Translations under genes and position numbers: made by a program
Part shown: one piece after another, positions 1 to 57,995 of the stretch
How the letters are laid out: every line of letters begins with the position of its first letter
How positions within the stretch are numbered: position 1 is the first letter of the stretch
DNA from: a virus
Strand: one strand, 5' to 3'
Length of the DNA: 64,000 bases
IMG/VR virus record: IMGVR_UViG_3300008116_000173
Coordinates: 1-64,000 of that record
The notes under the pieces: generated by a model
The model's database searches: none
What the model was told of the DNA's origin: nothing
The model's input: only the letters and a program-made list of their open reading frames with translations

Positions 1-1161
1 AAAGCTAAAACAATAGCACAAGGTATAGCCGCTACTAAAAAATGGCACAGAGAAAATCCTGAATATACTAATGGTGGTTGGTTAAATCAATATGAACAAG
101 GTGGTATTAATCCTTTAGAAGCTGATATAATTTCAAAAGTTATAATGCAAAGGAATAAAGATAAAGACTTTGTAAAAAGAGCTTATGCTGTTGGTGAATA
201 CCCAGAATCTAATATGTTTCAACGCAATAGCCCTAATGATTTTGGTGAAAAAGAATCACATTTAATGTCTTGGGGAACAGATGATGAAGGACAAGCTTGG
301 ATGTATCCTAGTATTTTTAATCCTAATAATGAAGCTATTAAAGTTCCTAATGAATATGCAGATTATATTTCTTCTATAGGTTATAAAAAAGCTACAGGTA
401 TAAAATATGAAGAAGGTGGTTATGCTGATGATTCTGCAGTGTTAAATACTGAAGGTCAAGAAGTTAACACTATGCAATTTGCATTACCAACAGTACCTAC
501 TTTTAATTTTGGCAATGGTGATGGTGATGGTGAAGATCCTAAAGATAAAAAAAAGTCTAAAGATAAAAAAACTGATACTAGAACAATAGGTCAAAAAAGA
601 CATGATGCATTAGAAGCTGCTAAAACTAAAATCTTAAAAACTGAAAGTCCAGAAAACAAGAAAAAAATGGACATGTTATACAGCACTACTATAGCTGCTG
701 AAAATACATATGGGTATGACCCTAATGCTTATGGTAGAAAAAAACAAACACGTTCACCAATGTCAATTGATAATATTGCATTAGATGAATTGTTTAACCC
801 TAAAGGTGAAAAAAATCGTTATACACTACAACAAAAATTAAATTTTGATTTGTTGAGAAGTTTAGGTTTACCTACTGATAAAGCTAAGTTAAAAGAACTA
901 TTAGAAACAGATGATGCTTATGCTGGATTAGGTGCTGCTAAAACACTTTACTATAATGAAGGCGCTTTAAAAAATTTACCTAATCCTACAGATACTGCAG
1001 CTTATATAAATTTATATTTAAATGAATATAATAAAAGCGGTGCTTTAAAATATCAAAAAAGAAATGAATTAATTGATAATATTACTAATAAGATGAGGGC
1101 TGAAGGTAAACGTAAAACTAAAACTATTAAGCCAGTTGTTAAAAATAAAACTACTAAATAA
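1..1161 (+). CDS. Virion cargo protein, 5'-partial, with xxGG motifs and a C-terminal lysozyme-like domain
   Basis: Frame 1 is open from base 1 (KAKTIAQGIAATKKWHRENPEYTNGG...), so the 145 start is internal. YTNGG/YEQGG/YEEGG motifs. The C-terminal IAAENTYG...AYAGLGAAKTLY...LP...YN pattern resembles phage lysozyme-fold domains. Confidence 0.55.
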   Translation, partial: KAKTIAQGIAATKKWHRENPEYTNGGWLNQYEQGGINPLEADIISKVIMQRNKDKDFVKRAYAVGEYPESNMFQRNSPNDFGEKESHLMSWGTDDEGQAWMYPSIFNPNNEAIKVPNEYADYISSIGYKKATGIKYEEGGYADDSAVLNTEGQEVNTMQFALPTVPTFNFGNGDGDGEDPKDKKKSKDKKTDTRTIGQKRHDALEAAKTKILKTESPENKKKMDMLYSTTIAAENTYGYDPNAYGRKKQTRSPMSIDNIALDELFNPKGEKNRYTLQQKLNFDLLRSLGLPTDKAKLKELLETDDAYAGLGAAKTLYYNEGALKNLPNPTDTAAYINLYLNEYNKSGALKYQKRNELIDNITNKMRAEGKRKTKTIKPVVKNKTTK

Positions 1162-4100
1162 TGAAATCTAAATTATTAAAATTAGCAAACGTTAAATCTG
1201 AACAGGAATTTTATAAAAAATATCCTACTGAAGATGCTTTTTTAAAAGCTTTTCCTAAAATGAAAAGTGAACTTAAACAGTTTGCTAATGGTGGACCTGG
1301 TGATGGTGACGGTGATTCTAAACGTAAAACTAAATATCCAGTATTAGATGTTAGTAAAATTAAACCTAAAAGTACTGCTGATAGTGTTATAACATGGGCA
1401 CAATTACCTATTGCTCAAGCAGCTATTGCAAGTAGAATGGCTAAGGGTGAATTTAATAATTTATCAACAGATCAATTAAAAGATTCTGTTAACAATATGT
1501 ATAAAAGTTTTGGTGTTAATCCTGACTTATTATATAATTCAGGTAAAACAATGGATTCAGCATTATCATATTATAAAAATGAAAATGGTGATTACGTAGG
1601 TTTTATACCTAAAGATGCTTATGCTCCTAAAGCTTGGAACCCAGAATATATAACTACTCAAACTAGGTCACAAGCTATGCAATCTTCAAAAGGTAAAAAA
1701 GTAAATTCTGATTTTGCAATAATCAATATTAATGATATAACTGGTGATAAAAAACAAGTAACATTACCTGGTAGAGATAGTGAAAGAATAATTGTATCAT
1801 TAAAAGATAAGGATAAAACTAAACCTTTAATGTTAAAAACAAGAAATGATGCTGCTGAAACTAATCTTTTAAATGCTAATCCAAATTTAACAGGTTGGAA
1901 TACTGTAAAAAATTATTATAATGATCCATCATTTAATCAAGAAATAAATGCACTTTCCCCTACATCAGAAAACCCAAATAATAAAGTAACACGTACTTTT
2001 ACTCCTAACTTTATAATGAAGCAAAGAGCATATGGTGGTTTACAAGAATATGCTGATGGTGGTAAAATAATGAAAGATATTGGTGCTGGTGCTTATGGTA
2101 TTGGTGAAGGTATATTAGATACGGCTACTTTTGGTTTAACAGATCAATTAACTGATAAAGGTTATACAGCTTTGCAAAAAGCTGGTGGTACTACTAATGA
2201 AGAAGAACTTAAACAACAAAATGCTATCCGTGGTGGTGGTAATATTGCAGGTGCTGTAGGCACAGCTATATTTACTGGTGGTGCTACTACGGGTGCTGCT
2301 ATAGGTCAAGGTGCTAAAGGTGCTAATGAAATTGTACAAAACACTAATATAGTTCCTGATGAATATAAACAAACTGCAGGTTCAATAATTAACCTTGCAG
2401 GTATGGCTGGTAGTATGGCTGCTGGTTCACCAAGCTCTTTATCAAATCCTGCAGCAACTCAATTTATGAATAGTAATTTTACACAAGGTGTACAACAAAT
2501 GAATAAATATAAACCTTTTATGAATGCCGTAGGTTTTAGAAACGGTGGTATTCAACAATATGTAGATGGTGGTATGGGACCTAATGCTGAAGTAGAAAAA
2601 CAAGAAAACACAGTAGCTCCTGATGGCACTTTTACACAATATAATGGTCCATCACATGAAGATGGTGGTATAGAAACAACTTTAGATCAAGGTGAAATGA
2701 TATTCTCTGATAAATTAAAACCAATAGGTTCTAAAAAAACATATGCTCAATTAAATAAATCGTTTAATACTCAAAAAGAAGATGAGTTATTAAATGACCC
2801 TAAAACAAATGCTGTACAAAAATTAACAGCTGCAATGATGCGTAGAGCTAAATTAACACAATCTATTGCTTTATTCCAAAACCAAGAACAACAGAAAGAA
2901 GCTAAAGTACAAGCTTATGCTGATAAAATGGGTGTTCCTGTTTTAACTCCTAACAGTCAAGCTGAAGAACAAATGGCTAATGAATCACAAGAAATGGGTG
3001 AAGAAATGCCAATGGCTAGAATGGGTGGTATGATTAAACGTGCTGATGGTAGTTATTCTAAACGTGGTTTATGGGATAATATTAGGGCTAATAAAGGTAG
3101 TGGTAAGAAGCCTACTCCTGAAATGTTAAAACAAGAAGCTAAGATTAAAGCTCAATATGCTATGGGTGGTCCTACTGATCCTCCTTTAACTCCAGAAGAA
3201 CTTAAATGGTTAGCTACAAGCTTAAGAGGAATAGAAAGTGCTAAATATTTATCTGGTCGATATCCTGATAATACCATGCCTGGTGGGACAGCGGACAGAA
3301 TTAAAGAATTAACCGGACCACAAAAACTTCAGTTACAAAAGTATATGCAAAATACTGATGTAATAACAGATATGATAGAAGGTATTACTCCAAATATTGA
3401 ATTTTTTAACCCTAAGCCAAAAAATAGTAAATTAGCTATGGGTGGTATGATATATGCTAATGGTGGTAGTTTTGATAACCCTGGTTTTAAAGCATTACCT
3501 GAAGCTGTACAACAAAAGATTATGGCTAACTATGAAATGGGTGGTATGTTGAAAGATACTGAAATGGATTACACACCTATGGAAGGTGAAGAATACATGG
3601 AGTATAAAAAAGGTGGTATATATATTAAACCTGAAAACCGTGGTAAGTTTAGTGCTGCAGCTAAAAGGGCTGGTATGGGCACACAAGCTTACGCTAAACA
3701 CATTTTAGCTAATAAAGAGAATTATAGTTCAACATTAGTTAAACGTGCTAATTTTGCACGTAATGCAGCTAAATGGCATCATGAAATGGGTGGTTTACAA
3801 CAATTTGCTGAAGCTGGTATGTATGGTGATCCACTTAAACCAGCTTGGCAAACATCATCAACACCTACAGCTGCATCAGCTGGTATTGCTAATCAAGGTA
3901 ATACTTTTGTTGCTTCTTCACCAGTTTCAGAACCTAGAAGAAATCTGCTTGCTATTCGTAAATTAGATGAAAGAACTTTTAATAATAATAAACCATCTAA
4001 TAAATTACTTTCAGGAGAAACAAAGCTTAATTTTGGTCCTAAAATTAAACTTGATGACGATAATTGGTCAAAAAATAATTTAACTTTTAATCCTCTTAAA

Positions 4101-4718
4101 TACAAAGGACAATCTAAATCTGAAGGAGAATCTTTTGATTGGCAAAATGCTGCAGGTATTGCATGTGTAGGCTTATTAAGTAATGCTGGTAATATATATA
4201 ATATTGCACGTGGTTTACAAAAACCTGAAGATTGGCAATATGAACGTGCTACAGCACAGTATTTAGATCCTAGTGCTGATTTAGCTGAAAATGCTAGAAT
4301 GTACCAAGAAGCTAAACGTGCTTCTCAATATGCTTCAGCAGGTAATGCTACTAATTATTTAGCTAATACTGCTGCAGGTAGAGCTGCTAAAATGAATGCT
4401 GATAGACTTGTTAGAACTAATTATAGTAATGCTAATGCTCAGATAGCCAATCAGTTAGGTTTATTTAATACACAAATAGCTAATGCTGAAATGAATGCTA
4501 AACAACAAGATGAAGCACAACGCAGAAATTTAATTGGTCAAGGTATGTCAGGTATTGGTGAAAATGTATTAGGTTTCACAGGTGATTTAATGCGTATGAA
4601 TGCTTATAATAATTACTTTGATAATCCTGACTTTAAAAAAACAACTAAAGGTTTACCTACATTAGGTGGTACTAGATCTAGTACTAGAGGTAGTAGTATA
4701 GGTAAAACAGGTGTATAA
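1161..4718 (+). CDS. Modular virion cargo/ejection protein with ~12 xxGG motifs and Gly/Ala-rich membrane-like segments
   Basis: 1185 aa; AEVEKQE...GPSHEDGGI...IFSDKL block; hydrophobic Gly-rich stretches; lies upstream of the virion RNAP as in crAss-like phages. Confidence 0.6.
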   Translation: MKSKLLKLANVKSEQEFYKKYPTEDAFLKAFPKMKSELKQFANGGPGDGDGDSKRKTKYPVLDVSKIKPKSTADSVITWAQLPIAQAAIASRMAKGEFNNLSTDQLKDSVNNMYKSFGVNPDLLYNSGKTMDSALSYYKNENGDYVGFIPKDAYAPKAWNPEYITTQTRSQAMQSSKGKKVNSDFAIININDITGDKKQVTLPGRDSERIIVSLKDKDKTKPLMLKTRNDAAETNLLNANPNLTGWNTVKNYYNDPSFNQEINALSPTSENPNNKVTRTFTPNFIMKQRAYGGLQEYADGGKIMKDIGAGAYGIGEGILDTATFGLTDQLTDKGYTALQKAGGTTNEEELKQQNAIRGGGNIAGAVGTAIFTGGATTGAAIGQGAKGANEIVQNTNIVPDEYKQTAGSIINLAGMAGSMAAGSPSSLSNPAATQFMNSNFTQGVQQMNKYKPFMNAVGFRNGGIQQYVDGGMGPNAEVEKQENTVAPDGTFTQYNGPSHEDGGIETTLDQGEMIFSDKLKPIGSKKTYAQLNKSFNTQKEDELLNDPKTNAVQKLTAAMMRRAKLTQSIALFQNQEQQKEAKVQAYADKMGVPVLTPNSQAEEQMANESQEMGEEMPMARMGGMIKRADGSYSKRGLWDNIRANKGSGKKPTPEMLKQEAKIKAQYAMGGPTDPPLTPEELKWLATSLRGIESAKYLSGRYPDNTMPGGTADRIKELTGPQKLQLQKYMQNTDVITDMIEGITPNIEFFNPKPKNSKLAMGGMIYANGGSFDNPGFKALPEAVQQKIMANYEMGGMLKDTEMDYTPMEGEEYMEYKKGGIYIKPENRGKFSAAAKRAGMGTQAYAKHILANKENYSSTLVKRANFARNAAKWHHEMGGLQQFAEAGMYGDPLKPAWQTSSTPTAASAGIANQGNTFVASSPVSEPRRNLLAIRKLDERTFNNNKPSNKLLSGETKLNFGPKIKLDDDNWSKNNLTFNPLKYKGQSKSEGESFDWQNAAGIACVGLLSNAGNIYNIARGLQKPEDWQYERATAQYLDPSADLAENARMYQEAKRASQYASAGNATNYLANTAAGRAAKMNADRLVRTNYSNANAQIANQLGLFNTQIANAEMNAKQQDEAQRRNLIGQGMSGIGENVLGFTGDLMRMNAYNNYFDNPDFKKTTKGLPTLGGTRSSTRGSSIGKTGV

Positions 4719-4746
4719 TATTAAAAATAATAATTAACTTTATAAC

Positions 4747-6821: not shown

Positions 6822-9800
6822 ATGGGCAAAAAACAAAATATTAAGCAACCTATTATTATTGATGGTGTCAAACTTGGTGGCGTTGAACCAAGTGTAAAAG
6901 ATGTTACAGTATCAGATTATAGTCCAGTATTAACTACATTATCTCCAGATAATACATTTGGTGAATCTAAATATGATCTTGAAAAACCATGGTCTGTTGA
7001 AGAAATACAAAGTGGTGATTATGAACTGTATAGAGGTAAAGCTCAAAATGGTTTTGCACAATTAGGTCTTGGCTTACTTAGAGCTACTGGCAAAGCATTA
7101 CTTGAAGGTGTTAAAACACCTGGTTATTTGTATGCATTAGGTGATGCTATGCGTCCTGGTGTAACATTAGATCAAGCACTTGATAATTCTTTTATTAAAG
7201 CTTTTGAAGGTGTTGAAGAAAGTATGAAAGAAGCTATGCCTGTTTATCAATCTTATAAATCAGGTAGAGGTGGATTAGTTGATAATTTATTTTCAACATC
7301 ATTTTGGGGATCTGAAGGTGCTGATGGTGTAGGTTATATGGCTGGTTTATTTATACCTGGTGCTGGTATAAAAGCATTAGGTATGGCTGGTAAAATTGCT
7401 AAATTAAGCAGGGGTACTAAGATATTAGGTGGTGCTGAAAAGATAGGTGAAATGGCTGAATTAGGTACTATTACATTAGTTAATACTATAGCTGAAGCTG
7501 GTGCTGAAGCTAAAGGATTAGCAGATAATCTTAAAATACAATTTAGAGATAGATTAAATCCTGACTCACCTAATTACAATCCTATTAATCCTAGTACAGG
7601 TCAAGTATGGACAGAAAAAGAAATATCTGAAGCTATAGCTGACAATACAAGAAATTTATTTACTGAAAACTTTGCTTTATTAGTAGGACCTAATTTATTA
7701 ATGAATAAATTTTTATTAGGTCGTTTTGCTAAAGATAAAAAGATACTAGATAGTTTTAGAGATGCTAATGGTAATTTAATATCTAACCCTGTAGTTAAAC
7801 GTAAATTACTTTCTGAATATGGTAAAAAAATAGGTTTAGGTTTAGGTAGTGAAGGTTTTTTTGAAGAAGGTAGTCAATTTGCACTTGAAAATTATCATAA
7901 TAAAAAAGCATTTAATGAAACTAATAAAAACCTTTTAGATGGTTTTATTAATGAATACTATAATGGTTTAAGTAACATTGATGGTCAAAAATCAATAGCA
8001 TTAGGTGCTATACTTGGTGGTTTTGGTGGTGCTATAGGTCAGTACAGACAGAATAAAGCTGAAAGTAAAATGCGTCCTAAAATCAGTAAACTTATTGATA
8101 TGAATTTTGATGGGTTTGCTGCTGATACAGATATTTATGACAGGGATGAAAATGGTAATATTATTAAAGTAAATGTTGAAAAACAATTAGCTTATTTTGC
8201 TAATATGGCTAGTGAAATGAAAGCATCACAATTAGCTGATGCTGCAACATTAGCAGATGATCCTGTATTACATGATCTTATTCAAAGTGATCAATTTGCA
8301 AGGTTTGCTGTACCTTTTATTCAATTAGGTGATGTAGGTTTAGAAATATTAGATGAAAAAATTGATAAAGCATCAGAAACTAGAGAGTTACGTGATAATG
8401 AATTATTAGGTCAAGATAAAACTAAATTTAAATTAGATTTTAATGAACAGCAATGGAAACAGAATCTTAAAAACAGTGCTAAACAATTAGCAGCTGCTTA
8501 TAATGGTTCTATTGAATTAGCTAATAAATTACCTTTTCTTGAAGAAGCTGCTGCTAAAAATCCTAAATATGCAGCTGATTACATTAATGTTTTAGCTAAC
8601 ATGATGTATTTTGAAACATCTAAACAGATGTTTTATGTAGAACAAATAAGTAAACTAAATGCTCAAATTTTAGATATAGATAACAGTGATAAAAGATTTT
8701 TACCACAGAATGAAGCTTTTCGTGAAAAATTTGTTAAACAAATTGAATCATTAGAAAAACTATTATCAGAATCTAAAGAAAATTATAAAATTTTGTTTGA
8801 TGAAAATGAACAAAGTAAAGCATATGATGAATATATAAAAGATAGAAAAGAAGAAGAAAATTTAGCACAACAAGCACAAGCTGAAGTTGATGCTGTTAAT
8901 AATGAATTTGATCCTGTTAATAATCCTCAAGGTGCAGCTAAAGAACAAGCAGCTGCTGCAAGTAATGTTGCTGAAGATCTTAAAAATGAATTTGGTAATA
9001 CACAAACTAATCCACCAACACTTAATGAAATATTAAATCAAAGTCAAGGTGACCGTGCACCTGCACCTACATTAAGTGATGTATTAAATCAAACTGCTCA
9101 ACAAACTCCTGTTTCTACAGATGCTAAGAAAGCTGATATAGAAAAAAATTATTTTATAGTTACAATGTCTGGCTCTAGAACTATTGAGCAATTAAAATCA
9201 GAAAAAAATCCTGATTTTATAGGAGACTATGAATTTTTAGATTTAGGAGATGGTTTAGTAGCATGGAAAACACCTAAAGATCCAAAATCAACAATTCAAC
9301 AATATTTAATTGCAGATACTAAATCAAATAGTAAATTAATACATAAAACATCTAAAGATGTAAAAGGTAATTTTGCAAGAATAAATGAACCTAATGTAAA
9401 AGCAGATGCTAAGTCTAGTAATGATAATTATGAATTAAGATTAAATAGATTAAATGAAGCTATTTCAAAAATTAATAATGCAGAACTAGCTGCTTTAGAA
9501 GGTAGTAAACCTGCTGAACCAATTGCTACTCAAACACCTGTTACATCAACTGTATCTGATGAAGATCAAGATGAAGTATCTAAACAAATAAATAATGTAT
9601 CAGTTTATTCTCATACTGATGATTATGATAATGTTGATAAAATACCTTTAAACTCAATAGAAGGTAAAATAAAACAACTCTGGAATGATTTCAGAATGCT
9701 TTTATTTAAAGGTAAAAAAATAGGTAAACAATATTTATTTGATCGTAATGAAAATGGTTTGCCTAATTATGAAAATAAATCAGGTATTGATGTTACTGCT

Positions 9801-12800
9801 TTAAATAATTTAAGAAAAGGTGATACTGTTAGATTTGAATCACGTCCTTTATCTGTAGATCCAGATGCTATTGCTATATTAGATTTAAATAATAAACTAA
9901 TAGGTTGGGTTAGGGCTTCAGCTAAAAAACAATTAGAACAATTAAAAACAAATAATCAGTTAAATACTGAACAAGCTCAAACACTTCAACAATTTGAAGA
10001 ATGGCGTACAACATTACTTAATAAACTTAAATCAGGTGAAGAAGTATATAGTACAGTTCAAGAAAAAGGTACAGGTAACTTATACACTAAAACTATATTA
10101 TTACCTACAGGTCAACAGATTGTAGATGCTAATATAGATATATTTAATTCATTTAGAGAAAAAGATACCATACAAAGTAAACCTATATTTGTATATGCAA
10201 GTAAAAAAGATGTTACAGGTAGATCAAAATTAGTATTACCTGAAACAACATTTACACCTGAAGAAAATGCAGCTATTCAAAATAGATTAGAAACATTAAA
10301 TAAATATGATTTAAAACCAGGTCGTGTATTTAAATTAATTAAAGATTTAAATGATGAGTGGAGTTTAATGCCATTATATGCTAATAATATTACTGATGAT
10401 ATTTTTAAAGATATAGTTGAAATATTAAAAAATACAGATAATGAATCTGATATTCAAATACTTAGTCGTGATTTAAATAAATATATTTATAGTACTACTA
10501 ATGATAATAAATCAGCACCATTATTAATTAAGAAAAATCAAATTAATCAAATTGTTTTTTATTTAGGTACTAAAAGTTTTACATTAGATGATATAAAATC
10601 AAAACCTGAAATTTGGAAACAAGTTAAAGATATACTTAAAAAACAAAAACAAAATATAGAGGTAGCAAACCTTAATCAATCATTTCAACAACAAGAGTAT
10701 GCTAAAAACAAAACCTTGTTAACAAATGTTAATTTATATGAAGGTGAATATTTTATACAACCTTATGTATCTTACGTAACAGATTTTAAAATTAACATAA
10801 ATCCTAAACCTGTAACTACAACACCAGCTGCAGCTAGTGCTCAACCTAGTACTAATCAACAACAAGTTGATAGGGCTGAACGTTTAAAACGTGCAGCAGC
10901 TAGGTATAAAAATCCAGATACTGAAGGTGCAGCATCAGTTAGACCTGATTATAGTAAATATAATGAAAAGCAATTTAAAGCCTTTTTAAAGAAGAAATTA
11001 CCTCAGCTTAGTATAGCTAACCAAGACCAATTAAATGCTCTTAGAGGGCTTCTAATTGATCCTGTGGGGTATTTTAAAGGTAACCTTATATATTTATTTA
11101 AAGGTGCTGGTAATTTAACAGCTTACCATGAAGCATTTCACGGTGTATTTAGGAATTTATTAACAGTAGCTGAGCGTGAAAATATAATTAATGAAGCTAA
11201 AAGTAAGTATAAAGAACCTACAAAAGAAGATTTAGATAACTTACAAAAACGTTTAAACAATAATTATACTACTGAACAATTAACTTATTTATATTACGAA
11301 GAACAATTAGCTGATGATTTTGCAATTTATACTAATGATAAAAACAACCGTAGCTTACTTAAAAGAATTACAGATGCTATTAGAGCTATATTTGATAAAA
11401 TACTGTCCTATTTTGATTTATTTGAGAGTGCTAATACCTCAAGTATAAATGATGTATTTGATGCTGTAAATGAAGGTAGATTTAAACAAAGACAATCTAT
11501 AAGTAATAATGTAGTTAATTTACCTTTGTTTCAAGAAGGTGCTTATTCACCTAAAGCTAAATTAAATATTGGTTTAGCTGATAGAATTAAAGTTGTATCA
11601 TCATTAGCTGATAACTTTTTAGCTTTATTGAATCAACGTATAGTTAATGATAAATATGCTGATGTAAGTAAAAAAGATTTATTTAATGGTATATATGATG
11701 AATTATACAATCAATTAAATGAAGCTTTTGATTTAAGCGATTCAGATTTACTTGGTAATGTTATATTAAATTATGCTGATTTAATTAATCAGGATGTTAA
11801 AACTAATTTAAAAGAACGTGGTGTACTTGATAATTTTGATTATGAATTTATTAATAGTGAAGAACGTAATCCTGAATCAAAATCAACATTAACTAATGAT
11901 GATAAATTAACATTAGCTGTATCTGAAACTGAAGAAACTCAAATTAAAGAAGGTAAAGATTCTAAAGGATATAGAGAACAAACTTCTATTTCAGGTTTAA
12001 CTACTGCATCTGCACGTATTAAATTATTTTTATCAGCTATACCTGTTTATGAAGAAAATGAAAATGGTGAATTAGTTTATGAAAAAAATGAATTAGGTTT
12101 ACAAAAATATCATGATTTTAAATCATTATATTATTATATAGAAAAGAACTTAATTGATAAATATACTTTTGAAGAACAATTAGCAGTGTTAAAAAATTTA
12201 ACATCTTCTAATCCTGCTTTAATAAGTGTATTAAATAAACTTCAAGTTAATCCGCCCTACATGAGTGCTGAAAGATTTGAAATGTTACAAAATGATTTTA
12301 AAACTAATTTTAGTAAACAACAACTAGTATACACATTAGTTAAACATTCATATAATCCTGCTAATAATACTATTAGTTTTAAAATAATAGATGCTAATAG
12401 AAATAATTTACCTACTAAATTAAAAGAAAGTTGGAAAAATAGTTATACAGTTAATGTATCTGAAAAAGGTTTATCACAACCAATTAAATTAGAAAACACT
12501 CTTAAAAAAGAAATTAAAAAACTTGATAATGAAAATGGTGCTTTAGATGTTGATGTTATCAGTTCATTGCTTAAAACTATTCATATTGATTTAAGTAAAA
12601 AAACTATAGAAGCTAATGCTGATAGTAAAGTATTTGCAAGGGATATAAATGTTGTATTATCATGGTATATTAAAAATAATAATACTAATTATGATGCTGC
12701 TACAAGGATAGCTATTGAAAATTTAATTAAACTTGAAACAGCTGTAATGATAGAAATGCATTCACAATCATTTATTGATGGTGAAGGTAATAATATCTGG

Positions 12801-15800
12801 ACTATACAATTACCATCTGAATTAAGTAAGTTTTTAGCTAAAGTTAAAAATCCTCAAAAACGTGAACGATTTATAAATGATTTCTTTAAAGATGTTTTTT
12901 ATAAAAATTCTAATTTACTTAACGAATTACAACGTAATTCTAAATTTGCTGAAATATTTTCAATATCTTATTTAGATTCATTTAAAGATGAAATAGGTGT
13001 TAAAAAAGGTATTGGATTTACATCATTATCACCAAGAGATTATTTAGCTATGAAAATAGCTTTATTTAATAACCTTGAGGTTAATAGTGAAGATCGTTTT
13101 ACAATGCCTGTAAATAAATATTTATATATTGTACCTGCTGATAAGAGTATGCAAGCCATTGTAGACTCTACATCATTTGATGTTTTCTTTGCACCAAACA
13201 ATATTGAAGTAAGTACCAATAGTAAAATCATTGAGTCGTTTTATAATATATTTTTACAAGAAGCTAAACGTATAAATAAGTTTAATAAAATAAAAAATAG
13301 TTTTTTAACTGAAGGTTCACAATCAAAATTTAAACCTACATTGCTTAATGAGTATGGTGTATTTAGTAAAAAAACATATCAAAGTGATTTAGTACAAAAT
13401 TTATTAAATAAATATAATACTGAAGGTACATTAACTAATGAAGAATATGCACAATTAGCCAATAAAATGGATGGTCAAGCATTTAAATTTAATTATTTAA
13501 ATAATGATTATTTTACATTTGCTAAAAATTTACCACAACAAACTAAAGAGTTAATTAAAAATACATTAGAAAATAGTTTACTTACTGATGATATGCTTGA
13601 AAAATCTTTAGCTGCGCAAAAAAATATAATTAAAAAAGAGTTAGCTTCATTTGTATATAAAACTTATGAAATAACTTTAAAAGAGTGGGAAAGTAAAGGC
13701 ATAATAACTAAAAATAAAAATAATGAATATGTTAATTCATTAGTTCAATTACCTTCTGTAAAAACAACTACTAGTGTAGATCAACGTATTAAAAATTTAG
13801 CATTAAAATATAGTGCTAATTATTTATTACACAATATTGAACTATCTAATATGTTTAACGGTGATGTATCTCAATATAAACCTAATGATTTACAAAAACG
13901 TACTAATCAGTCACAAAGTTTTATGACTGATGGTAAATTTAATAATCCTGTAATAAGAACTAAAGTAAATAAAGATGTTATACATGATTATTCTTTAGAA
14001 TCAGATTATACTAACATGGTTGATGTACTTAAACAATTAGGTGTATCTGATGAACGTATAAATGAAATATTAGATCCATATAAAAAGACTAATGTAACAG
14101 ATGCTCAAGTAATAATTCATCCTGAATTTTTTAAACTTATTCATTATTCACAAGGTACTTGGACACCTGAATTAGAAACAGCTTATAACATAGCTGAAGG
14201 TATAATACCTGGTGATGCTAAAAAAAGTGTACAAACATTATTACGTGGTTTTAAACCATTTTATTTTGGTAAACGTTTTGATCCTGTAACTGAAACATGG
14301 TATTATGAACAAGTTAAATGTTCTATGTTTCCATTATTTAAATCTTATACAGATATTAATCCATTATTTGCTTTAAAACGTGAAGAAATGGAAAAAGATA
14401 ATATAGATATGATAGCTTTTGAATCATCATTCAAAGGTGCTATAGGTTATAGAAGTGATTTTTTAGATGATAATAAAACTATATTAGAATTAGATGTTAA
14501 TAATTTTGGTATTCAACAAGCTAACCCTGATCATACTACTGAAGGTAATGATTCATTACGTCAGCTTAAAATGATTTTACCAGGTACTATTGACACTAAT
14601 GTTAGTTATAATGGTAGATCAGGTGCTGATATATTAGATGAAATATTATCACTTGAAGCTGCTAATTTAAAAACTGATTTAATTAAATTAACTAAATTAT
14701 TAAATAATCCTTCGTCACAAGCTGAGTTTAATAGCTTTATTCAAGAAATGATTACTAAGCGTGGTGCTTATGAAGTATTAGTTAATTTTTTAAGTGTTGA
14801 TGAAAATGGTCAATATATTTACCCATTAGATAGTGGTATAACAAGTACTAAAGTACAAGAATTATTATCTAGTGTATTTACTTCTAAAGTATTAAAACAA
14901 AAATTTAATCATGGTGGTTCATTAGTACAAGCTACTAGTTTAGGTCTTAAGTTTAGTAATTTAAGTGAACAACAAAAAAACCTTACACCTGAATTATTAG
15001 CTAAACAACGTAAATTAGAATGGTTTAAACCAAACATTCAAACTGGTCAAATAGGTTATGCAGAATGTATTATGCCTGCATCAGCTAAAAAATTCTTTGA
15101 TGAAAATGGTTTTTTAAAAGATATAAATAATATACCTGATGCATTAAAAGAATTTATAGCTTATCGTATACCTACTGAAGGTTTACATTCAACAATGGCT
15201 ATTAGAGTAATTGAATTTTTACCTAAAGAATTAGGTAATTTTATATTATTACCTTATCATGTAACTACACAATTTGGTGCTGACTTTGACTTTGATAAAA
15301 TTTATTTCTTTGGTAGAGAATTTACTACAAGTGTAAATAAGAAAACAGGTAAAGTAACTTACAGAATACCTGAAATGAATTATGATGAAACTGAGTATGC
15401 TACTGAACAACGTTATAAAGATTATGTATATTCTGTATTACAAGATAAAAATAATGAACTTTATTATGAAGATGTTATTACTGAATATGAAAAATATTAT
15501 GGTGAACCAATAGCATCATTATCTAAAAATGAAAAAATACAAGTTTTAGTAAGTGAAAACATACTAATGACACTAGATAAATTTAGTAAACGACCTATAG
15601 AAGAACAAAATACTAAAGCAGCTAGGAATAATCGTATAGTTGATAATTATCTTAATATTATTACATCTATTGAAAACTTAACTAATATTATTGCACCTTC
15701 AAGTTTTAAAGACATTGCTGATTTTAAAAATAATTATTTTGGTGAAAATGAAAAAGTTAATTTCTTTGCTGATTTTACACAAAATAATTATAAAAATCGT

Positions 15801-18473
15801 AACCATACAGGTAGGATATTAAAAGGTATATGGGCTTTACATTTAACAGGTCATTCATATGCTCGTATATCAGGTTTATCAACTAAACAAAATGTAAATG
15901 CTCAAGGTTTTGTAGATTATGGTAATTCAGTTAATCTTGAAGGTGGTATTACTGAAGGTAATAATCATAGAAATGATTTTTCAAGATTATATAATGATGA
16001 AGGTAAATTAATAGCTCGTGAGTTAGGTAAAGTGATGGCTGCTGTATTAGATGACCTTAAAAATCCATTACTTGAAAGTTTAAATATTAACCAATATACA
16101 ACACATGCGTTAGCTGCTATTCTTAGGGCAGGTTATTCTATGGAAACTATGTTATTGTTTTCAAGTCAACCTGCAATAACTAAGTTTTCACAACAGTCTA
16201 TAGATAATTCAAGTGCTTTATCTAAAAAAACTGAACGTTTTGACATTGAAAATTTAAAAGTATCTTATATTAAAATATTAAAAGATATCTATAATAAATA
16301 TGAATATCAAGATAATCCTGATATTAAAAGACTTATGGATACTTTAAATACAAATATACCTATTACAAATGCTGAATTAAAGGATATTTTAACTAATTTT
16401 ACTAATGACGCTAATGGTAATTTAATTAATAAAGTTACTGGTAAAAAACCTAGTGTTGAACAAGCTATGAAATACTATCATGTTCAGGTTAATGTTTTAA
16501 AACAAATGGAAAACTTAATTGCAATAGGTGATCAGTTTAAAAACTTAAATAATTTTTATACTATAAATAAAGAAGTAGGACCTCAAATAGAAGATATTAT
16601 TGAACAACAAGATTTGTTAGTTCAAATATCTAAAGATGATATATTACGTGATTATGAAATTGATTCAATGGCTACTTTATATCAAACATGGGATACTCAT
16701 TTAAATGCTTTAGATTACTTTTCTAAATACTTTCCTTATAGTAGTGAGCTATACATGGGTATTAAAAGTCAAATAGCTTTAATTCAAAAAAATAAAAGTA
16801 TTAGCGGTATTAAAACTGATGACCGTAAATTAATAAATAACTTTATTAGGACTTATTTAGATTATTCTTTTGAGAAGTTTGTTGATATACCATCTCAATC
16901 TGAAGAATTATTAAGATCATTCCCATCAATGGTTAAACAAATTACTAAAGGTACATCAGGTTTAAAGATAGATGATATATCATATGAAGAATTAAGTAAA
17001 AATCCTTTTATAGCTAATATTGAAGTTAAATTCAATAAAAAAACTGGTTTAAATCAAATTCAATTAAAAAGTGGTCAGTTAATACCTCAAGTAAAAGATA
17101 GTATCTCTAATGGGCTTATATTGCTTTATAACAATAAAAAAACAAGAGGGTTAGCTGAAAATTTTGTTAAATATGCATTTTTAACTAGTGGTTTTTATAC
17201 TGGTGTTAATATGTATTCAAATCTTATAGATCCAAGTATATTAAAAGCTATGGAGTATACAAATTATAGGATGCAAACAACTAATGATTTAGTTAATGGT
17301 ACTTTTACATTAGAAGTTGATAATAATAGATTAATAGATCAATTAGTTAGAAATTATCCTTATAACTTTACTAATATATTTGATAGTAATTTATTTGATG
17401 AATCAACTAAAAATGGTTTACCTAATAAATTAACACTTAATGAAGAAGCTTTAAATGAAGCTAATATGAGTGGTTATATGTTTGATACTAAAATTGGTAT
17501 TTTAACACCACGTTATATAATGGTACGTCAAAAAGATGCTGAATCTACTAAAAAAGAAGGTTTAACATTATATAAATTAGAAAATAATAATGAAGGTTTT
17601 AAATATGTTAAAATAAATGAATTAGGTAAAAAAGGATTTTTAATAGAAGTAAATCCTTTAGAAGATATTGTTAATAGTGTTGTTAACAGAAATTTAGAAA
17701 AAATACCTGATGCTATACTTCAAGATCCACCTGATGGTGTTGAAAATGATATGATGCCTGAATTAAGTATGTCAAAAGATACTGAATATGATATGGAAGC
17801 TAGTATACTTGGTAAATCACAAGTTGAATTTGATGCTATAGATAAAGCTATTGCTGCTAAATCTATTACTCAACCTATAGTACAACCTACTGAAAGAAAA
17901 ACTTATTCAGGAAAAGTAACAAGTTTACAGCCTAATCAAATATTTGTATTTGGAAGTAATCCTCTTGGTATTAATGGAAATCCTTCTAAAGGCACAGGAG
18001 GAGCAGCTTTAGTTGCGTATAATATTGCAGGTGTTAAACAAGGTGAAAAAATGGATAATAAGTTATCTGATTCAGGAAAAGCTTGGGGAATTACAACAGT
18101 AAAAGCTCCAGGACAAAAAAGAAGTAAAACTCCTGAACAAATAACAGAAGGTATTAAAAAATTATATGAATATGCTAAACAAAATCCAACCAAAGAATTT
18201 TTAATTTCTGATTATTCAGGAACAAATCTTAATGGTTATACAGGTCAAGAAATGGCAGATATGTTTGTTAATGCAGGATCAATACCTTCTAATATAGTAT
18301 TTAATAACAACTTTGATAAATTAATTACTACTCAACCTACTACTCAACCTACTGCACAAGATAATCAAATATTAAATTCACCACAATTTAAAGAATTTTA
18401 CAATAAAGAATTAGAAAGTAATCCTAATTTAACTGTAGAAGAAGCTTTAGATTATTATAAAAAATGTAAATAA
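6822..18473 (+). CDS. Giant virion-packaged DNA-dependent RNA polymerase (crAss-type) with zincin protease domain and accessory cassettes
   Basis: 3883 aa; catalytic GADFDFDK (DFDFD at 15282-15296), AYRIPTEG, TDAQ and FESSFKG motifs; zincin YHEAFHG (11127-11141) with downstream EEQLAD; Gly-rich hydrophobic N-terminus. Confidence 0.9.
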   Translation: MGKKQNIKQPIIIDGVKLGGVEPSVKDVTVSDYSPVLTTLSPDNTFGESKYDLEKPWSVEEIQSGDYELYRGKAQNGFAQLGLGLLRATGKALLEGVKTPGYLYALGDAMRPGVTLDQALDNSFIKAFEGVEESMKEAMPVYQSYKSGRGGLVDNLFSTSFWGSEGADGVGYMAGLFIPGAGIKALGMAGKIAKLSRGTKILGGAEKIGEMAELGTITLVNTIAEAGAEAKGLADNLKIQFRDRLNPDSPNYNPINPSTGQVWTEKEISEAIADNTRNLFTENFALLVGPNLLMNKFLLGRFAKDKKILDSFRDANGNLISNPVVKRKLLSEYGKKIGLGLGSEGFFEEGSQFALENYHNKKAFNETNKNLLDGFINEYYNGLSNIDGQKSIALGAILGGFGGAIGQYRQNKAESKMRPKISKLIDMNFDGFAADTDIYDRDENGNIIKVNVEKQLAYFANMASEMKASQLADAATLADDPVLHDLIQSDQFARFAVPFIQLGDVGLEILDEKIDKASETRELRDNELLGQDKTKFKLDFNEQQWKQNLKNSAKQLAAAYNGSIELANKLPFLEEAAAKNPKYAADYINVLANMMYFETSKQMFYVEQISKLNAQILDIDNSDKRFLPQNEAFREKFVKQIESLEKLLSESKENYKILFDENEQSKAYDEYIKDRKEEENLAQQAQAEVDAVNNEFDPVNNPQGAAKEQAAAASNVAEDLKNEFGNTQTNPPTLNEILNQSQGDRAPAPTLSDVLNQTAQQTPVSTDAKKADIEKNYFIVTMSGSRTIEQLKSEKNPDFIGDYEFLDLGDGLVAWKTPKDPKSTIQQYLIADTKSNSKLIHKTSKDVKGNFARINEPNVKADAKSSNDNYELRLNRLNEAISKINNAELAALEGSKPAEPIATQTPVTSTVSDEDQDEVSKQINNVSVYSHTDDYDNVDKIPLNSIEGKIKQLWNDFRMLLFKGKKIGKQYLFDRNENGLPNYENKSGIDVTALNNLRKGDTVRFESRPLSVDPDAIAILDLNNKLIGWVRASAKKQLEQLKTNNQLNTEQAQTLQQFEEWRTTLLNKLKSGEEVYSTVQEKGTGNLYTKTILLPTGQQIVDANIDIFNSFREKDTIQSKPIFVYASKKDVTGRSKLVLPETTFTPEENAAIQNRLETLNKYDLKPGRVFKLIKDLNDEWSLMPLYANNITDDIFKDIVEILKNTDNESDIQILSRDLNKYIYSTTNDNKSAPLLIKKNQINQIVFYLGTKSFTLDDIKSKPEIWKQVKDILKKQKQNIEVANLNQSFQQQEYAKNKTLLTNVNLYEGEYFIQPYVSYVTDFKININPKPVTTTPAAASAQPSTNQQQVDRAERLKRAAARYKNPDTEGAASVRPDYSKYNEKQFKAFLKKKLPQLSIANQDQLNALRGLLIDPVGYFKGNLIYLFKGAGNLTAYHEAFHGVFRNLLTVAERENIINEAKSKYKEPTKEDLDNLQKRLNNNYTTEQLTYLYYEEQLADDFAIYTNDKNNRSLLKRITDAIRAIFDKILSYFDLFESANTSSINDVFDAVNEGRFKQRQSISNNVVNLPLFQEGAYSPKAKLNIGLADRIKVVSSLADNFLALLNQRIVNDKYADVSKKDLFNGIYDELYNQLNEAFDLSDSDLLGNVILNYADLINQDVKTNLKERGVLDNFDYEFINSEERNPESKSTLTNDDKLTLAVSETEETQIKEGKDSKGYREQTSISGLTTASARIKLFLSAIPVYEENENGELVYEKNELGLQKYHDFKSLYYYIEKNLIDKYTFEEQLAVLKNLTSSNPALISVLNKLQVNPPYMSAERFEMLQNDFKTNFSKQQLVYTLVKHSYNPANNTISFKIIDANRNNLPTKLKESWKNSYTVNVSEKGLSQPIKLENTLKKEIKKLDNENGALDVDVISSLLKTIHIDLSKKTIEANADSKVFARDINVVLSWYIKNNNTNYDAATRIAIENLIKLETAVMIEMHSQSFIDGEGNNIWTIQLPSELSKFLAKVKNPQKRERFINDFFKDVFYKNSNLLNELQRNSKFAEIFSISYLDSFKDEIGVKKGIGFTSLSPRDYLAMKIALFNNLEVNSEDRFTMPVNKYLYIVPADKSMQAIVDSTSFDVFFAPNNIEVSTNSKIIESFYNIFLQEAKRINKFNKIKNSFLTEGSQSKFKPTLLNEYGVFSKKTYQSDLVQNLLNKYNTEGTLTNEEYAQLANKMDGQAFKFNYLNNDYFTFAKNLPQQTKELIKNTLENSLLTDDMLEKSLAAQKNIIKKELASFVYKTYEITLKEWESKGIITKNKNNEYVNSLVQLPSVKTTTSVDQRIKNLALKYSANYLLHNIELSNMFNGDVSQYKPNDLQKRTNQSQSFMTDGKFNNPVIRTKVNKDVIHDYSLESDYTNMVDVLKQLGVSDERINEILDPYKKTNVTDAQVIIHPEFFKLIHYSQGTWTPELETAYNIAEGIIPGDAKKSVQTLLRGFKPFYFGKRFDPVTETWYYEQVKCSMFPLFKSYTDINPLFALKREEMEKDNIDMIAFESSFKGAIGYRSDFLDDNKTILELDVNNFGIQQANPDHTTEGNDSLRQLKMILPGTIDTNVSYNGRSGADILDEILSLEAANLKTDLIKLTKLLNNPSSQAEFNSFIQEMITKRGAYEVLVNFLSVDENGQYIYPLDSGITSTKVQELLSSVFTSKVLKQKFNHGGSLVQATSLGLKFSNLSEQQKNLTPELLAKQRKLEWFKPNIQTGQIGYAECIMPASAKKFFDENGFLKDINNIPDALKEFIAYRIPTEGLHSTMAIRVIEFLPKELGNFILLPYHVTTQFGADFDFDKIYFFGREFTTSVNKKTGKVTYRIPEMNYDETEYATEQRYKDYVYSVLQDKNNELYYEDVITEYEKYYGEPIASLSKNEKIQVLVSENILMTLDKFSKRPIEEQNTKAARNNRIVDNYLNIITSIENLTNIIAPSSFKDIADFKNNYFGENEKVNFFADFTQNNYKNRNHTGRILKGIWALHLTGHSYARISGLSTKQNVNAQGFVDYGNSVNLEGGITEGNNHRNDFSRLYNDEGKLIARELGKVMAAVLDDLKNPLLESLNINQYTTHALAAILRAGYSMETMLLFSSQPAITKFSQQSIDNSSALSKKTERFDIENLKVSYIKILKDIYNKYEYQDNPDIKRLMDTLNTNIPITNAELKDILTNFTNDANGNLINKVTGKKPSVEQAMKYYHVQVNVLKQMENLIAIGDQFKNLNNFYTINKEVGPQIEDIIEQQDLLVQISKDDILRDYEIDSMATLYQTWDTHLNALDYFSKYFPYSSELYMGIKSQIALIQKNKSISGIKTDDRKLINNFIRTYLDYSFEKFVDIPSQSEELLRSFPSMVKQITKGTSGLKIDDISYEELSKNPFIANIEVKFNKKTGLNQIQLKSGQLIPQVKDSISNGLILLYNNKKTRGLAENFVKYAFLTSGFYTGVNMYSNLIDPSILKAMEYTNYRMQTTNDLVNGTFTLEVDNNRLIDQLVRNYPYNFTNIFDSNLFDESTKNGLPNKLTLNEEALNEANMSGYMFDTKIGILTPRYIMVRQKDAESTKKEGLTLYKLENNNEGFKYVKINELGKKGFLIEVNPLEDIVNSVVNRNLEKIPDAILQDPPDGVENDMMPELSMSKDTEYDMEASILGKSQVEFDAIDKAIAAKSITQPIVQPTERKTYSGKVTSLQPNQIFVFGSNPLGINGNPSKGTGGAALVAYNIAGVKQGEKMDNKLSDSGKAWGITTVKAPGQKRSKTPEQITEGIKKLYEYAKQNPTKEFLISDYSGTNLNGYTGQEMADMFVNAGSIPSNIVFNNNFDKLITTQPTTQPTAQDNQILNSPQFKEFYNKELESNPNLTVEEALDYYKKCK

Positions 18474-25168: not shown

Positions 25169-25495
25169 TTATCTATTATCTCCAGAGCCTTGTATTACAC
25201 CTCTGTTCATCCTATCTTTTAATTTAGCTATATTATTTTCTGCAATAGCATTCATATCAAGTCCTAAATCTCTAGATAAGGCAGCTATATACCAAAGTAC
25301 ATCACCTATTTCTTTACCAATCTCTACCACACTAGCAGGTGAATATACGCCATTATTATCCCGTAATACTTTTTTAATCTTACCTAAAACTTCACCAGCT
25401 TCATTGCTAAGACCTAAAGCAGGGTAAATAATTTTGCTATTGTCACTGTAAACAGCTGTCTGTGCAGCTTCATTTTGATATTCGTTAAACGTCAT
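25169..25495 (-). CDS. mazG: MazG-like NTP pyrophosphohydrolase
   Basis: LGLSNEAGEV...KEIGDVLWY...NIAKL..R motif. Confidence 0.9.
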   Translation of the reverse strand: MTFNEYQNEAAQTAVYSDNSKIIYPALGLSNEAGEVLGKIKKVLRDNNGVYSPASVVEIGKEIGDVLWYIAALSRDLGLDMNAIAENNIAKLKDRMNRGVIQGSGDNR

Positions 25496-26445
25496 TTTGT
25501 TTCTTTTATTACTGCAAAGCTAGCATAAGCTCCACATTTTTTACATTGTTTTTGTATTTTTAACACACCTGTAGCAGTTATACGTTTTTTACAATATGCT
25601 AAATCATTATTACCACATTTAGGGCAAGTATGTTTATCATGACCACGTAATACACCTACATGTGTTTTAGCTGATACATAATTTTCAAGTTTCTTAAATA
25701 CACGTTCTAATAATAAAACATCATTACAACAATATTTAATCATCTTGCTTAAGGCTGTAGGATCATTATTTTCAATAATCTTTTTCCACAATTCAAACCC
25801 ACCTGTATCTATTTTCTTCCCTACTTTAAGTATTTGACCTATGTAGTCCAACCTGTTAGAGTTAAATTTAAACTCTTTACGGGCTATTTTAAGTGTATCT
25901 ATACTGGTTATAGAAGGCATGTTTCTAATACCATGATATAAACACCTGGTTTTGAACCACTTAATATCAAACTTATCTGAATTATGACCTACAATCTCAT
26001 CAGCATCCATTATAATTTTATAGAACTGATGGATCATTTCATAATCATCACCTTTATTCCAATGTAAAGAATGTACTTTATTTTCATGTTCCCATTTGTA
26101 ACATATACAAATAATGGCTCTTTCCTTAATAATATTTTGGTAACCTACATTAAGGTTATAACCAATAGTCCATGAATAAACAACATTAGGGCTTGTTTCA
26201 ATGTCAAAATATAGGCGTTTTAAGCTATTTTTAGGCATTTTAAAGACACTTTGTTGTTCAGGTATACTTTTACTTGGTTTAGATTTAGTAAACGATTTAA
26301 AGTTATCCTGAGCTGTTTTTTTAGCTATTACAATATCATTTAGTGACCACCTAGGCCACATTGATTTTATAAACTTTACGTTTTTCTTGAAATAGCCTGG
26401 TCTATCCATTAGCCATTTATATATAACTAATTGATTTTCAGTCAT
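25492..26445 (-). CDS. DnaQ/RNase H-like 3'-5' exonuclease with C-terminal Zn ribbon
   Basis: FDIETS, GHNSDKFD, YCCNDV; CPKCG...CKKCG. Confidence 0.85.
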   Translation of the reverse strand: MTENQLVIYKWLMDRPGYFKKNVKFIKSMWPRWSLNDIVIAKKTAQDNFKSFTKSKPSKSIPEQQSVFKMPKNSLKRLYFDIETSPNVVYSWTIGYNLNVGYQNIIKERAIICICYKWEHENKVHSLHWNKGDDYEMIHQFYKIIMDADEIVGHNSDKFDIKWFKTRCLYHGIRNMPSITSIDTLKIARKEFKFNSNRLDYIGQILKVGKKIDTGGFELWKKIIENNDPTALSKMIKYCCNDVLLLERVFKKLENYVSAKTHVGVLRGHDKHTCPKCGNNDLAYCKKRITATGVLKIQKQCKKCGAYASFAVIKETK

Positions 26446-26905
26446 TTGTTTTTGTTTTATATACTACATTACGGTCATCAACACCTTTATTTGTTTTTTG
26501 ACTATCTAAAATCATCATAATACTGGCTGCTGCATTAGCCAAATGATTAGTACCAATCTCATCAATATCTTCCCCACGTAACCATTGGTTTAAATGACGC
26601 ATAGCTGCTGCTATATAACGCCTGTAATTAGTACCATGACTATAATTAAATACCCCATATTTTTGAGCACCTTTTGAAAATACTATTGCTATTTCTAATA
26701 ATGCTTCTTGTGGTATTAATGTAAAGTCAGGTTTATCATGATCAAATTTTATAGTTTCTTTAATTTCTACAGTATTTGAATTACTATATGTAGTATTTGA
26801 TTTATAATTAGGATAATATTCTCCTATTTTAGGTGCAGAAACCCTATTTTCTAGGGCTTCTGTTCCATTTGCTGGTCTATTTAGTTTATTAAAGTCAAAT
26901 TCCAT
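26438..26905 (-). CDS. dATP/dGTP diphosphohydrolase domain protein (DUF5664-like)
   Basis: KFDHDKPDFTLIP...GAQKYG..NY..G...AAMRHL...GEDID...HLANAA. Confidence 0.85.
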   Translation of the reverse strand: MEFDFNKLNRPANGTEALENRVSAPKIGEYYPNYKSNTTYSNSNTVEIKETIKFDHDKPDFTLIPQEALLEIAIVFSKGAQKYGVFNYSHGTNYRRYIAAAMRHLNQWLRGEDIDEIGTNHLANAAASIMMILDSQKTNKGVDDRNVVYKTKTND

Positions 26906-37616: not shown

Positions 37617-37618
37617 AA

Positions 37619-39142: not shown

Positions 39143-39143
39143 A

Positions 39144-57981: not shown

Positions 57982-57995
57982 TAATAAATAAAACA

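Follow-up and report, generated by a model that had tools for sequence, protein, structure and literature searches.

An aromatic Gly-Gly junction at the boundaries of exchangeable modules in two predicted ejection proteins of a Crassvirales-like phage

Two modular cargo proteins at the contig start

The DNA analysed here (the window) comprises bases 1-64000 of the 72.5-kb IMG/VR virus record IMGVR_UViG_3300008116_000173, which is estimated to be ~53% complete. Its first two open reading frames (ORFs), ORF1 and ORF2, encode putative cargo proteins in which a short peptide ending in Gly-Gly, mostly of the form [YFLH]xxGG, recurs and is the subject of this work. The phage is Crassvirales-like: a 486-amino-acid (aa) protein encoded at 59727, the predicted major capsid protein (MCP), matches Crass_capsid (Pfam, E 1e-133), two small ORFs match CrAss_Ring_3_4, and genes for a portal and a terminase-like protein are found upstream. 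ORF2 is followed by ORF3 (682 aa) and ORF4 (3883 aa); the latter carries a DFDxD motif and would be a fused zincin/DFDxD virion RNA polymerase (RNAP), and ORF3 is taken as the second cargo gene (C2) from its position only.

Gene position and sequence matches indicate that ORF2 is probably an ejection protein of the cargo-protein-1 (C1) type. Residues 818-881 align with residues 374-431 of crAss001 gp45 (hhalign, probability 89%, E 2e-6), and the 59-aa module at aa 820-878 also matches C1-position genes of cr108_1, cr128_1 and cr127_1, with a PHROG 20603 match at aa 827-867. The most conserved ORF2 block, aa 464-612, matches the C1 protein of cr128_1 at 506-609 (profile hidden Markov model, E 1e-6) and also that of cr127_1. 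The cr128_1 protein is 46% identical to gp45, and transitively, via this protein only, the ORF2 block may be related to the portal-bound domain of gp45 (residues 425-552). A phmmer search of ORF2 against 1.84 billion representatives gave 3637 matches at E<=0.001; they were local, with different blocks matched in proteins of differing order. Pfam families found in the homologues are crAss_CARG1 (in crAss001 gp45 the domain bound to the portal; present in many of them, including P0172, P0024 and P0031), ART-PolyVal, ADPrib_exo_Tox, CHAP, LysM, Gly-zipper and DUF5754.

ORF2 itself has no Pfam match at E<=0.1, crAss_CARG1 (PF25725) included, and ORF1 has no significant family, its only hit being DUF222 (E 0.0077, below the cut-off). 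The "enzyme-like blocks" seen in a first-pass annotation of the window are accordingly not matched by any significant Pfam family in either protein, and no HExxH was seen when the two translations were inspected by eye. Sequence searches of the PDB with ORF2 and ORF1 returned chance-level matches only, and a protein atlas search with ORF2 455-620 found only viral hypothetical proteins and one crAss_CARG1 cluster, with no structure. A complex prediction of portal residues 1-720 with ORF2 455-620 scored 0.31 against a mark of 0.32, without controls.

The relatives of ORF1 (P0362, P0361 and P0365, 806-1091 aa) are 91-97% identical to it over the C-terminal 252-279 aa. Residue 1 of ORF1 aligns with their residue 84, and its close relatives begin with a short leader ending in YTDGG. 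In these close relatives other cassettes, of 440-700 aa, occupy the position of 103..420, two of them with an HExxH motif. The features of the two genes are as follows.

1..1161, + strand: ORF1, predicted to be a second protein of the modular cargo or polyvalent kind; truncated by the contig start, ~83 codons missing
1..78, + strand: end of a ~65-aa KKWH-type module, closing in YTNGG (64-78); motif-flanked in P0089 and P0144
91..105, + strand: YEQGG, second half of a tandem pair
103..420, + strand: ~106-aa cassette of ORF1, closing in YEEGG (406-420); lies between motifs in P0192
1161..4718, + strand: ORF2, 1185 aa, cargo-protein-1-like modular ejection protein, as suggested by the domains of its homologues and by matches to crAss001 gp45 and the C1 proteins of cr128_1 and cr127_1
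1161..1295, + strand: 45-aa N-terminal leader of ORF2, closing in FANGG (1281-1295); family M9, 25 proteins, always N-terminal
1296..2039, + strand: 248-aa cassette of ORF2 (aa 46-293), closing in RAYGG; family M19, missing in P0152
2049..2063, + strand: YADGG, tandem partner of RAYGG (2025)
2064..2549, + strand: Gly-rich, glycine-zipper-like block (aa 302-463), closing in FRNGG (2535-2549); family M2, 168 proteins
2559..2573, + strand: YVDGG, tandem partner of FRNGG
2574..2996, + strand: conserved block (match to cr128_1 C1 506-609); H499, G502, G503, S516, K520 and A529 nearly invariant
3015..3170, + strand: ARMGG, then a basic 47-aa MIKRADGSYS module, closing in YAMGG (3156-3170); family M6, 62 proteins, median 48 aa
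3171..3446, + strand: variable cassette (aa 671-762), closing in LAMGG (3432-3446); edges 0-2 aa from GG670/GG762 or from the internal GG709
3453..3545, + strand: YANGG, then a 26-aa NPGF module, closing in YEMGG (3531-3545); family M5, 87 copies in 76 proteins
3546..3617, + strand: 24-aa acidic module, closing in YKKGG (3603-3617); family M13, 14 proteins, all 24 aa
3618..3794, + strand: 59-aa basic IYIKPENRGKF module, closing in HEMGG (3780-3794); PHROG 20603, family M3, 153 copies, aligned with gp45 374-431
3795..4715, + strand: C-terminal region of ORF2 (aa 879-1185), a hypervariable linker followed by a conserved, helical-looking domain; C-type members of family M1

In the homologue P0201 the block equivalent to ORF2 aa 302-463 has a Pfam match to Gly-zipper_Omp. 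Across the homologues the tail after the last motif has a median length of 281 aa. The hypervariable linker within the C-terminal region (aa 893-990, 3837..4130) differs among all close relatives, and its divergent blocks are not bounded by Gly-Gly, unlike the cassettes.

The junction and its modules

The Gly-Gly junction marks module boundaries, whole cassettes are swapped or lost there among close relatives, and within the family conservation is highest at its glycines. All 15 sites of the first-pass annotation are present, starting at 64, 91, 406, 1281, 2025, 2049, 2535, 2559, 3015, 3156, 3432, 3453, 3531, 3603 and 3780; its residue class was less exact, as RAYGG and ARMGG fall outside [YFLH]xxGG and HEDGG (2655), which fits, had not been listed. 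In ORF1 and ORF2 together, 14 of the 22 Gly-Gly dipeptides belong to [YFLH]xxGG, against a mean of 1.77 (standard deviation 1.31) in 5000 composition-preserving shuffles, none of which reached 14. The Y..GG form occurs nine times against 0.54 expected (again 0/5000), and Gly-Gly itself is found 22 times against 12.5, a count that 20/5000 shuffles reached. Among the 34 window ORFs of at least 150 aa, [YFHW]xxGG is enriched only in ORF1 (3 vs 0.19) and ORF2 (10 vs 0.84); of the other 32, 26 have no motif and six have one. The other cargo genes follow this pattern, with no copy in ORF3 or ORF5 and one in ORF4, where 1.13 is expected. In the remainder of the contig (64001-72521) no ORF is comparably enriched, one 1162-aa reading frame having three motifs.

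The same enrichment was observed across the family. The 150 best phmmer matches to ORF2 contain 1082 copies of [YFWH]xxGG where 124 are expected, with at least three in 146 of them and none without a copy, and chance or composition as the cause is excluded by these counts and by the shuffles. A module alignment (A2) led to 80 IMG/VR loci, 68 of which have a long module-bearing ORF; nine loci without a host ORF by pattern and three with small hosts were left out of the density count. The module-bearing ORFs of the 68 loci total 59,697 aa and contain 336 motifs (5.63 per 1000 aa); in the other ORFs of at least 150 aa, 307,159 aa in all, there are 151 (0.49 per 1000 aa). Of these other ORFs, 14 have three or more motifs, and 11 of the 14 lie on the same strand within 60 nucleotides.

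To describe the site itself, 1970 occurrences in 241 proteins were reduced to 386 junctions by dropping those with at least 30% flank identity. Their consensus is [LM]-P-[KM]-[YF]-[AP]-[NDM]-G-G-[MIV]-[MIV]-[PD], with residue biases on either side of Gly-Gly and Met, Ile or Val enriched directly after it. The motif is retained at 30-40% protein identity, and in alignment A1 (67 sequences) nine of the 14 columns that are at least 90% conserved are junction glycines. Junctions often come in close pairs, as the first-pass annotation had noted: in 239 homologues the spacing from one Gly-Gly to the next peaks sharply at 6 residues (146 of the 262 gaps of up to 9), close runs comprise 248 pairs, 21 triples and one run of four, and doubled junctions have an 8-residue period. 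In 104/239 homologues the first motif is complete by residue 25, in some after only two residues, and in 165/239 by residue 50; the leaders that precede it are basic (mean net charge +4.6 for the 164 leaders of up to 50 aa).

Cutting the 241 proteins at the motif yielded 2275 segments, 1793 of them internal, with a median of 56 aa. The segments cluster into 127 families at a mutual coverage of at least 70%, many of fixed length, such as one of 70-71 aa in 48 proteins and one of 24 aa in 14 proteins; others are of 31-42 aa (median 31, 57 copies), of median 59 aa (the IHIKP type, 153 copies) and of median 48 aa (the MIKRADGSYS type, 62 proteins). The modules recur in different orders in other proteins, and at least nine ORF2 module families do so independently. 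Thus the motif sits at the edges of independently recurring modules, in agreement with the earlier observation that it bounds unrelated blocks.

Comparison of close relatives showed that these boundaries are also points of exchange. In nine of the 10 closest relatives of ORF2 (68-90% overall identity) the block 671-762 is replaced, and P0152 lacks exactly the block 46-293, the edges lying at most 3 aa from GG45 and GG293. Over the 10 relatives, cassette edges fall 0-3 residues from a Gly-Gly. The central cassette of ORF1 is likewise exchanged, between YANGG-type and YEQGG junctions.

The IHIKP-type module also exists as stand-alone genes. Among 120 small IHIKP proteins (48-156 aa), 25 have an aromatic-xxGG before the module, 21 have Gly-Gly only, 71 have another sequence and three were unmatched by the pattern; the 71 mostly carry [FY]KKG[SNH]K or start within a few residues. 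The strict motif thus precedes the module in 142/169 copies in long proteins against 25/117 single-module proteins, and many of the latter terminate exactly at the His/aromatic position.

Uncut joint, cleavage site or docking signal

For cleavage, which the first-pass annotation had proposed to occur during virion maturation, no direct evidence was found, and a distant relative, crAss001, speaks against cutting in the particle. In crAss001 gp45 (842 aa) the junction NAFGG|W that follows the IHIKP-type module, with glycines G427-G428 aligned to ORF2 G877-G878, falls within a continuous segment of the cryo-electron microscopy structure. According to the main text of the structure paper (PMC10172136), gp45 residues 425-552 form one resolved, portal-bound domain in mature virions, residues 214-245 are a helix bound to the tail barrel, and a single gp45 chain was modelled as bridging tail and capsid. 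The strings 'cleav' and 'proteoly' do not occur in that main text, nor is the motif mentioned there. The tail-bound helix begins 4 aa past GG209-210, and 7-9 of the 20 Gly-Gly of gp45 are aromatic-proximal, depending on the residue span used. The gp45 junctions are located near residues 20, 210, 264, 333, 374, 428 and 563.

Our preferred explanation, held tentatively and with less than even confidence, is that the motif is a conserved joint between modules that remains uncut in the virion, forms a turn and makes the modules autonomous, swappable and threadable. ORF1 and ORF2 would be modular ejection proteins, strings of independently recurring modules of ~20-250 aa, each closed by a junction. 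The sequence is compatible with a tight turn or hinge, Asn/Asp-Gly-Gly being turn-prone, with the aromatic residue as an anchor. Such a joint could let each mini-module fold or dock separately, keep any combination of cassettes in-frame and functional, and let the chain be strung out and passed through the portal and the tail, as suggested for gp45.

Several points weigh against this explanation. A plain hinge leaves the near-invariance of both glycines, the aromatic fixed three residues upstream and the two-sided biases unexplained, and these look like a site that is read by another protein; it also does not account for the extreme N-terminal motifs described above. The turn or hairpin geometry is itself predicted from the residues of the junction. 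It must be taken into account that the gp45 structure concerns one junction in one distant relative, with the aromatic at -1, and is silent on events after ejection. Moreover, the homologues were selected for their similarity to ORF2 and are related among themselves, so that the figures describe the family and are not independent trials.

Cleavage comes close behind, because the joint gives a poor account of the invariance of the glycines, of the fixed aromatic and of the copies at N-termini. It is possible, although on balance unlikely, that the junctions are cut after Gly-Gly by a zincin of the phage, by a different protease that it encodes or by one of the host, releasing small effectors or structural pieces; since one junction is intact in crAss001 virions, the cutting would most likely take place after ejection or at some junctions only. 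A short, portable and two-sided signature with near-invariant glycines followed by Met, Ile or Val would be expected of such a site, and a hydrophobic P1' would suit zincins. The basic N-terminal leaders of 7-25 aa that close with the motif and its relaxation in single-module proteins also agree with cutting. However, the single-module proteins retain the aromatic and the first Gly ([FY]KKG[SNH]K), which a Gly-Gly-specific enzyme could not cut, and tandem sites 8 residues apart would yield useless octapeptides. The more specific proposal that the cargo consists of Gly-Gly-punctuated polyproteins, kept whole for packaging and threading and then cut at ~10-15 sites in the cell by a zincin ejected with them or by a protease of the host, is somewhat more doubtful still.

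As to the enzyme, the two candidates named by the first-pass annotation exist:

6822..18473, + strand: ORF4, 3883 aa, with HEAFH at aa 1436 and DFDxD, a motif of the crAss virion RNA polymerase, at aa 2821
11127..11141, + strand: the HEAFH zincin-type motif of ORF4 (aa 1436)
52044..52322, + strand: 92-aa HELTH protein, a minimal zincin candidate (Peptidase_M78, E 0.0035, below the cut-off)

ORF4 has no Pfam family, and its zincin membership is based on the motif and the literature. The link of these candidates to the junction is weak: HExxH is present in 22/240 homologues and at only 8/68 loci, either in the motif-bearing ORF or in its adjacent upstream ORF, which excludes a tight coupling to a zincin encoded in cis. 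Still, some members (P0089, P0104, P0361 and P0365) carry HExxH cassettes between motifs, and the HELTH protein has a weak tblastn match to the HExxH region of P0089/P0104 (E 5e-4, in a tiny database). No Pfam family of adenain, of the cysteine proteases of the African swine fever virus (ASFV)/SUMO type (clan CE) or of C39 peptidases was detected in 48 window ORFs of this ~53% complete record. The adenain consensus, (M/I/L)xGG|x, has its hydrophobic residue at P4. In the 386 cargo junctions the aromatic is at P5, with Ala or Pro at P4 and Asn, Asp or Met at P3, a different geometry. The conserved SHE domain was also considered as a Gly-Gly protease, and nothing was found in support.

In cr50_1 the genes run portal, a HELGH 'peptidase', a 72-aa module protein, an acidic protein annotated 'regulatory protein RecX' and MCP; the leader of the module protein ends in YKDGG, and its direct neighbourhood to the 'peptidase', just after the portal gene, favours cleavage. 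These two genes (MT774375.1, Suoliviridae, 1149-2668) encode 431 aa and an IHIKP module annotated 'transcriptional regulator', and occupy the usual slot of a prohead protease; the 'RecX' protein is read as scaffold-like. Autoproteolysis has moreover been proposed in print, though not demonstrated: release by a zincin domain in work on polyvalent proteins (PMC5512222), and autoproteolysis of crAss RNAP polyproteins in a preprint (10.1101/2020.03.07.982082).

Finally, gp45 masses are essentially absent from the 2018 crAss001 gel lists obtained by matrix-assisted laser desorption/ionization (PMC6235969, supplement 8). In 13 virion bands, one of 12 predicted gp45 tryptic mass strings was found (1312.68 in Band11, probably by chance), and the gp44 control masses co-occur 3/3 in Band4; two high-mass gp45 strings probably missed the calibration offset, and 10 windows were usable. 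This absence gives no size for gp45 and would also be expected if its band had not been picked, so that it is at most a hint of cleavage.

An improbable alternative is a docking signal, a short linear motif bound repeatedly by the portal wing, the tail-barrel rings or a scaffold so as to load and order the cargo. The portable, two-sided signature and its frequency at N-termini would suit this role, and the resolved portal-bound segment of crAss001 begins at a tandem junction, AFGG-WLNTQGG, beside SH3-like portal loops. However, the bound parts of gp45 are a helix and a folded domain rather than the motif alone, and with ~15 copies per chain and 12 chains (gp45 is reported at ~12 copies per virion) very many binding sites would be needed. 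The lack of any motif excess in the co-packaged ORF3, RNAP and ORF5 also speaks against docking; it makes the general capsid-loading signal suggested in the first-pass annotation unlikely and excludes an ejection signal common to all cargo.

The codons bear on a last possibility. The first-pass annotation had stated that they vary and that selection is on the protein; in the window they hardly vary, 33/34 motif Gly codons being GGT and all nine Tyr codons TAT, and since the remaining Gly codons of ORF1 and ORF2 are GGT in 84% of cases, codon bias accounts for most of this uniformity (binomial tail p = 0.02). Selection on the protein nevertheless stands, because the motif codons do vary in relatives of balanced codon usage (crAss001, cr108_1 and cr128_1). 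It is thus very improbable that the motif is a by-product of cassette exchange at the DNA level, through a TAT NNN NNN GGT GGT microhomology with little protein function: the cassette edges on Gly-Gly and the GGT codons would fit, but the use of GGA, GGT, GGC and GGG at the motif as in the background (crAss001, cr108_1, cr128_1 and cr50_1) largely refutes it, and the conservation of the motif glycines at low protein identity also speaks against it.

Some observations on the surrounding genes should also be recorded. No GenBank phage was matched by window bases 1-12000 in a megablast search, and a search for related IMG/VR loci based on ORF2 found no relative. In the structural region, the stretch 57448..58406 (+), flanked by the portal gene and by 58491..59696 (+), encodes a ferritin-like protein (E 4e-23) and a DUF5856 protein; 58491..59696 codes for an acidic 401-aa scaffold-like protein with two short motifs that resemble each other, PFGGFK near its N-terminus and PFSGFK near its C-terminus, and that are unlike the cargo junction. 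Two adjacent ORFs (62076..62453 and 62465..62848, +) share the CrAss_Ring_3_4 profile of Pfam, at its positions 4-109 and then 118-219, which means either that a ring-protein gene is split or that a frameshift or a break in the sequencing interrupts it. On the other strand, neighbouring genes at 36066..39953 match Amidoligase_2, a class-II glutamine amidotransferase and a phiEco32-like COOH-NH2 ligase, a predicted peptide- or metabolite-ligating cluster. At 25172..26905 (-) a MazG-like pyrophosphohydrolase, a 3'-5' exonuclease and a protein with a dATP/dGTP diphosphohydrolase N-terminal domain adjoin, a grouping that may point to nucleotide-pool editing; none of the scanned ORFs looked like PurZ. 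A spore-photoproduct-lyase-like radical SAM protein (Pfam SPL, E 5e-22) is encoded at 46521..47375 (-).

Known systems and the meaning of the junction

The proteins themselves fall into established classes, those of crassvirus cargo protein 1 and of polyvalent proteins. Like gp45 (crAss_CARG1, PF25725; PMC10172136), ORF2 lies upstream of the second cargo and virion RNAP genes and has a Gly-rich transmembrane-like block, an IHIKP-type module, a conserved SHE-containing domain and aromatic-proximal Gly-Gly at segment boundaries. It differs in length (1185 vs 842 aa), in having more and different cassettes and no crAss_CARG1 match, and in its strict [YF]xxGG where gp45 mostly has A[FY]GG. Polyvalent proteins, as characterized in the text of PMC5512222, combine 2-15 unrelated domains in one phage polypeptide that is delivered with the DNA, and the module families of ORF2 conform to this. 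ART-PolyVal, CHAP, LysM and zincin cassettes occur in the ORF2 homologues as in polyvalent proteins; ORF1 and ORF2 have no recognisable enzyme or zincin domain in the same polypeptide, and most of their modules are mini-domains of 20-70 aa, unlike those of polyvalent proteins. In that text the words 'glycine' and 'linker' do not occur, and no shared junction motif is described.

As for the junction, precursors processed at Gly-Gly include substrates of the adenovirus protease and of ASFV pS273R, and polyubiquitin. The cargo resembles these systems in its repeated Gly-Gly at unit boundaries of virion or precursor proteins. However, no protease of the clan CE, C39 or deubiquitinase-like types was detected, the hydrophobic residue is at P5 and not at P4, and one junction is intact in a relative; the cargo is therefore not of the adenain/ASFV type, the protease family being absent from the search and the site geometry different. 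Internal proteins of T4, with a capsid-targeting sequence cut by gp21, and ejection proteins of phiKZ and SPN3US, cut by the prohead protease, are likewise packaged and ejected head proteins with a short recurrent processing or targeting motif. In those proteins the motif has Glu as its last residue and is the target of a dedicated prohead serine protease, whereas no prohead protease is found here between the portal and MCP genes, a slot where such genes often occur. In polymorphic toxins, VENN in CdiA and DPxGL in Rhs mark the cassette boundary, and the Rhs motif is also cleaved. These are short conserved peptides where variable cassettes exchange, as in the cargo; they mark one boundary before a C-terminal toxin, whereas the cargo has up to ~15 boundaries per protein, in virion cargo. 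By analogy, the junction would work most like these boundary motifs and, if it is cut, like Gly-Gly-directed precursor processing.

In the literature searched, no description was found of the junction motif or of cassette exchange at it, 'YxxGG' leading to unrelated papers only. Crassviruses are the most abundant human gut phages, and how they eject the proteins packaged in their virions has yet to be settled; as late as 2026, an article on the ejection proteins of N4 asked for structures of the crassvirus ones (PMC13434306). A portable junction motif parses giant proteins that lack annotation, giving more than 100 module families from 241 proteins, and shows that the cargo evolves through cassette exchange at defined points. 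If the cargo were indeed a polyprotein cut in the cell, the phage would deliver a cocktail of basic peptides and mini-domains of 3-8 kDa as early effectors, and the junction would be a phage counterpart of processing of the polyubiquitin or adenain type, with freely swappable effector cassettes.

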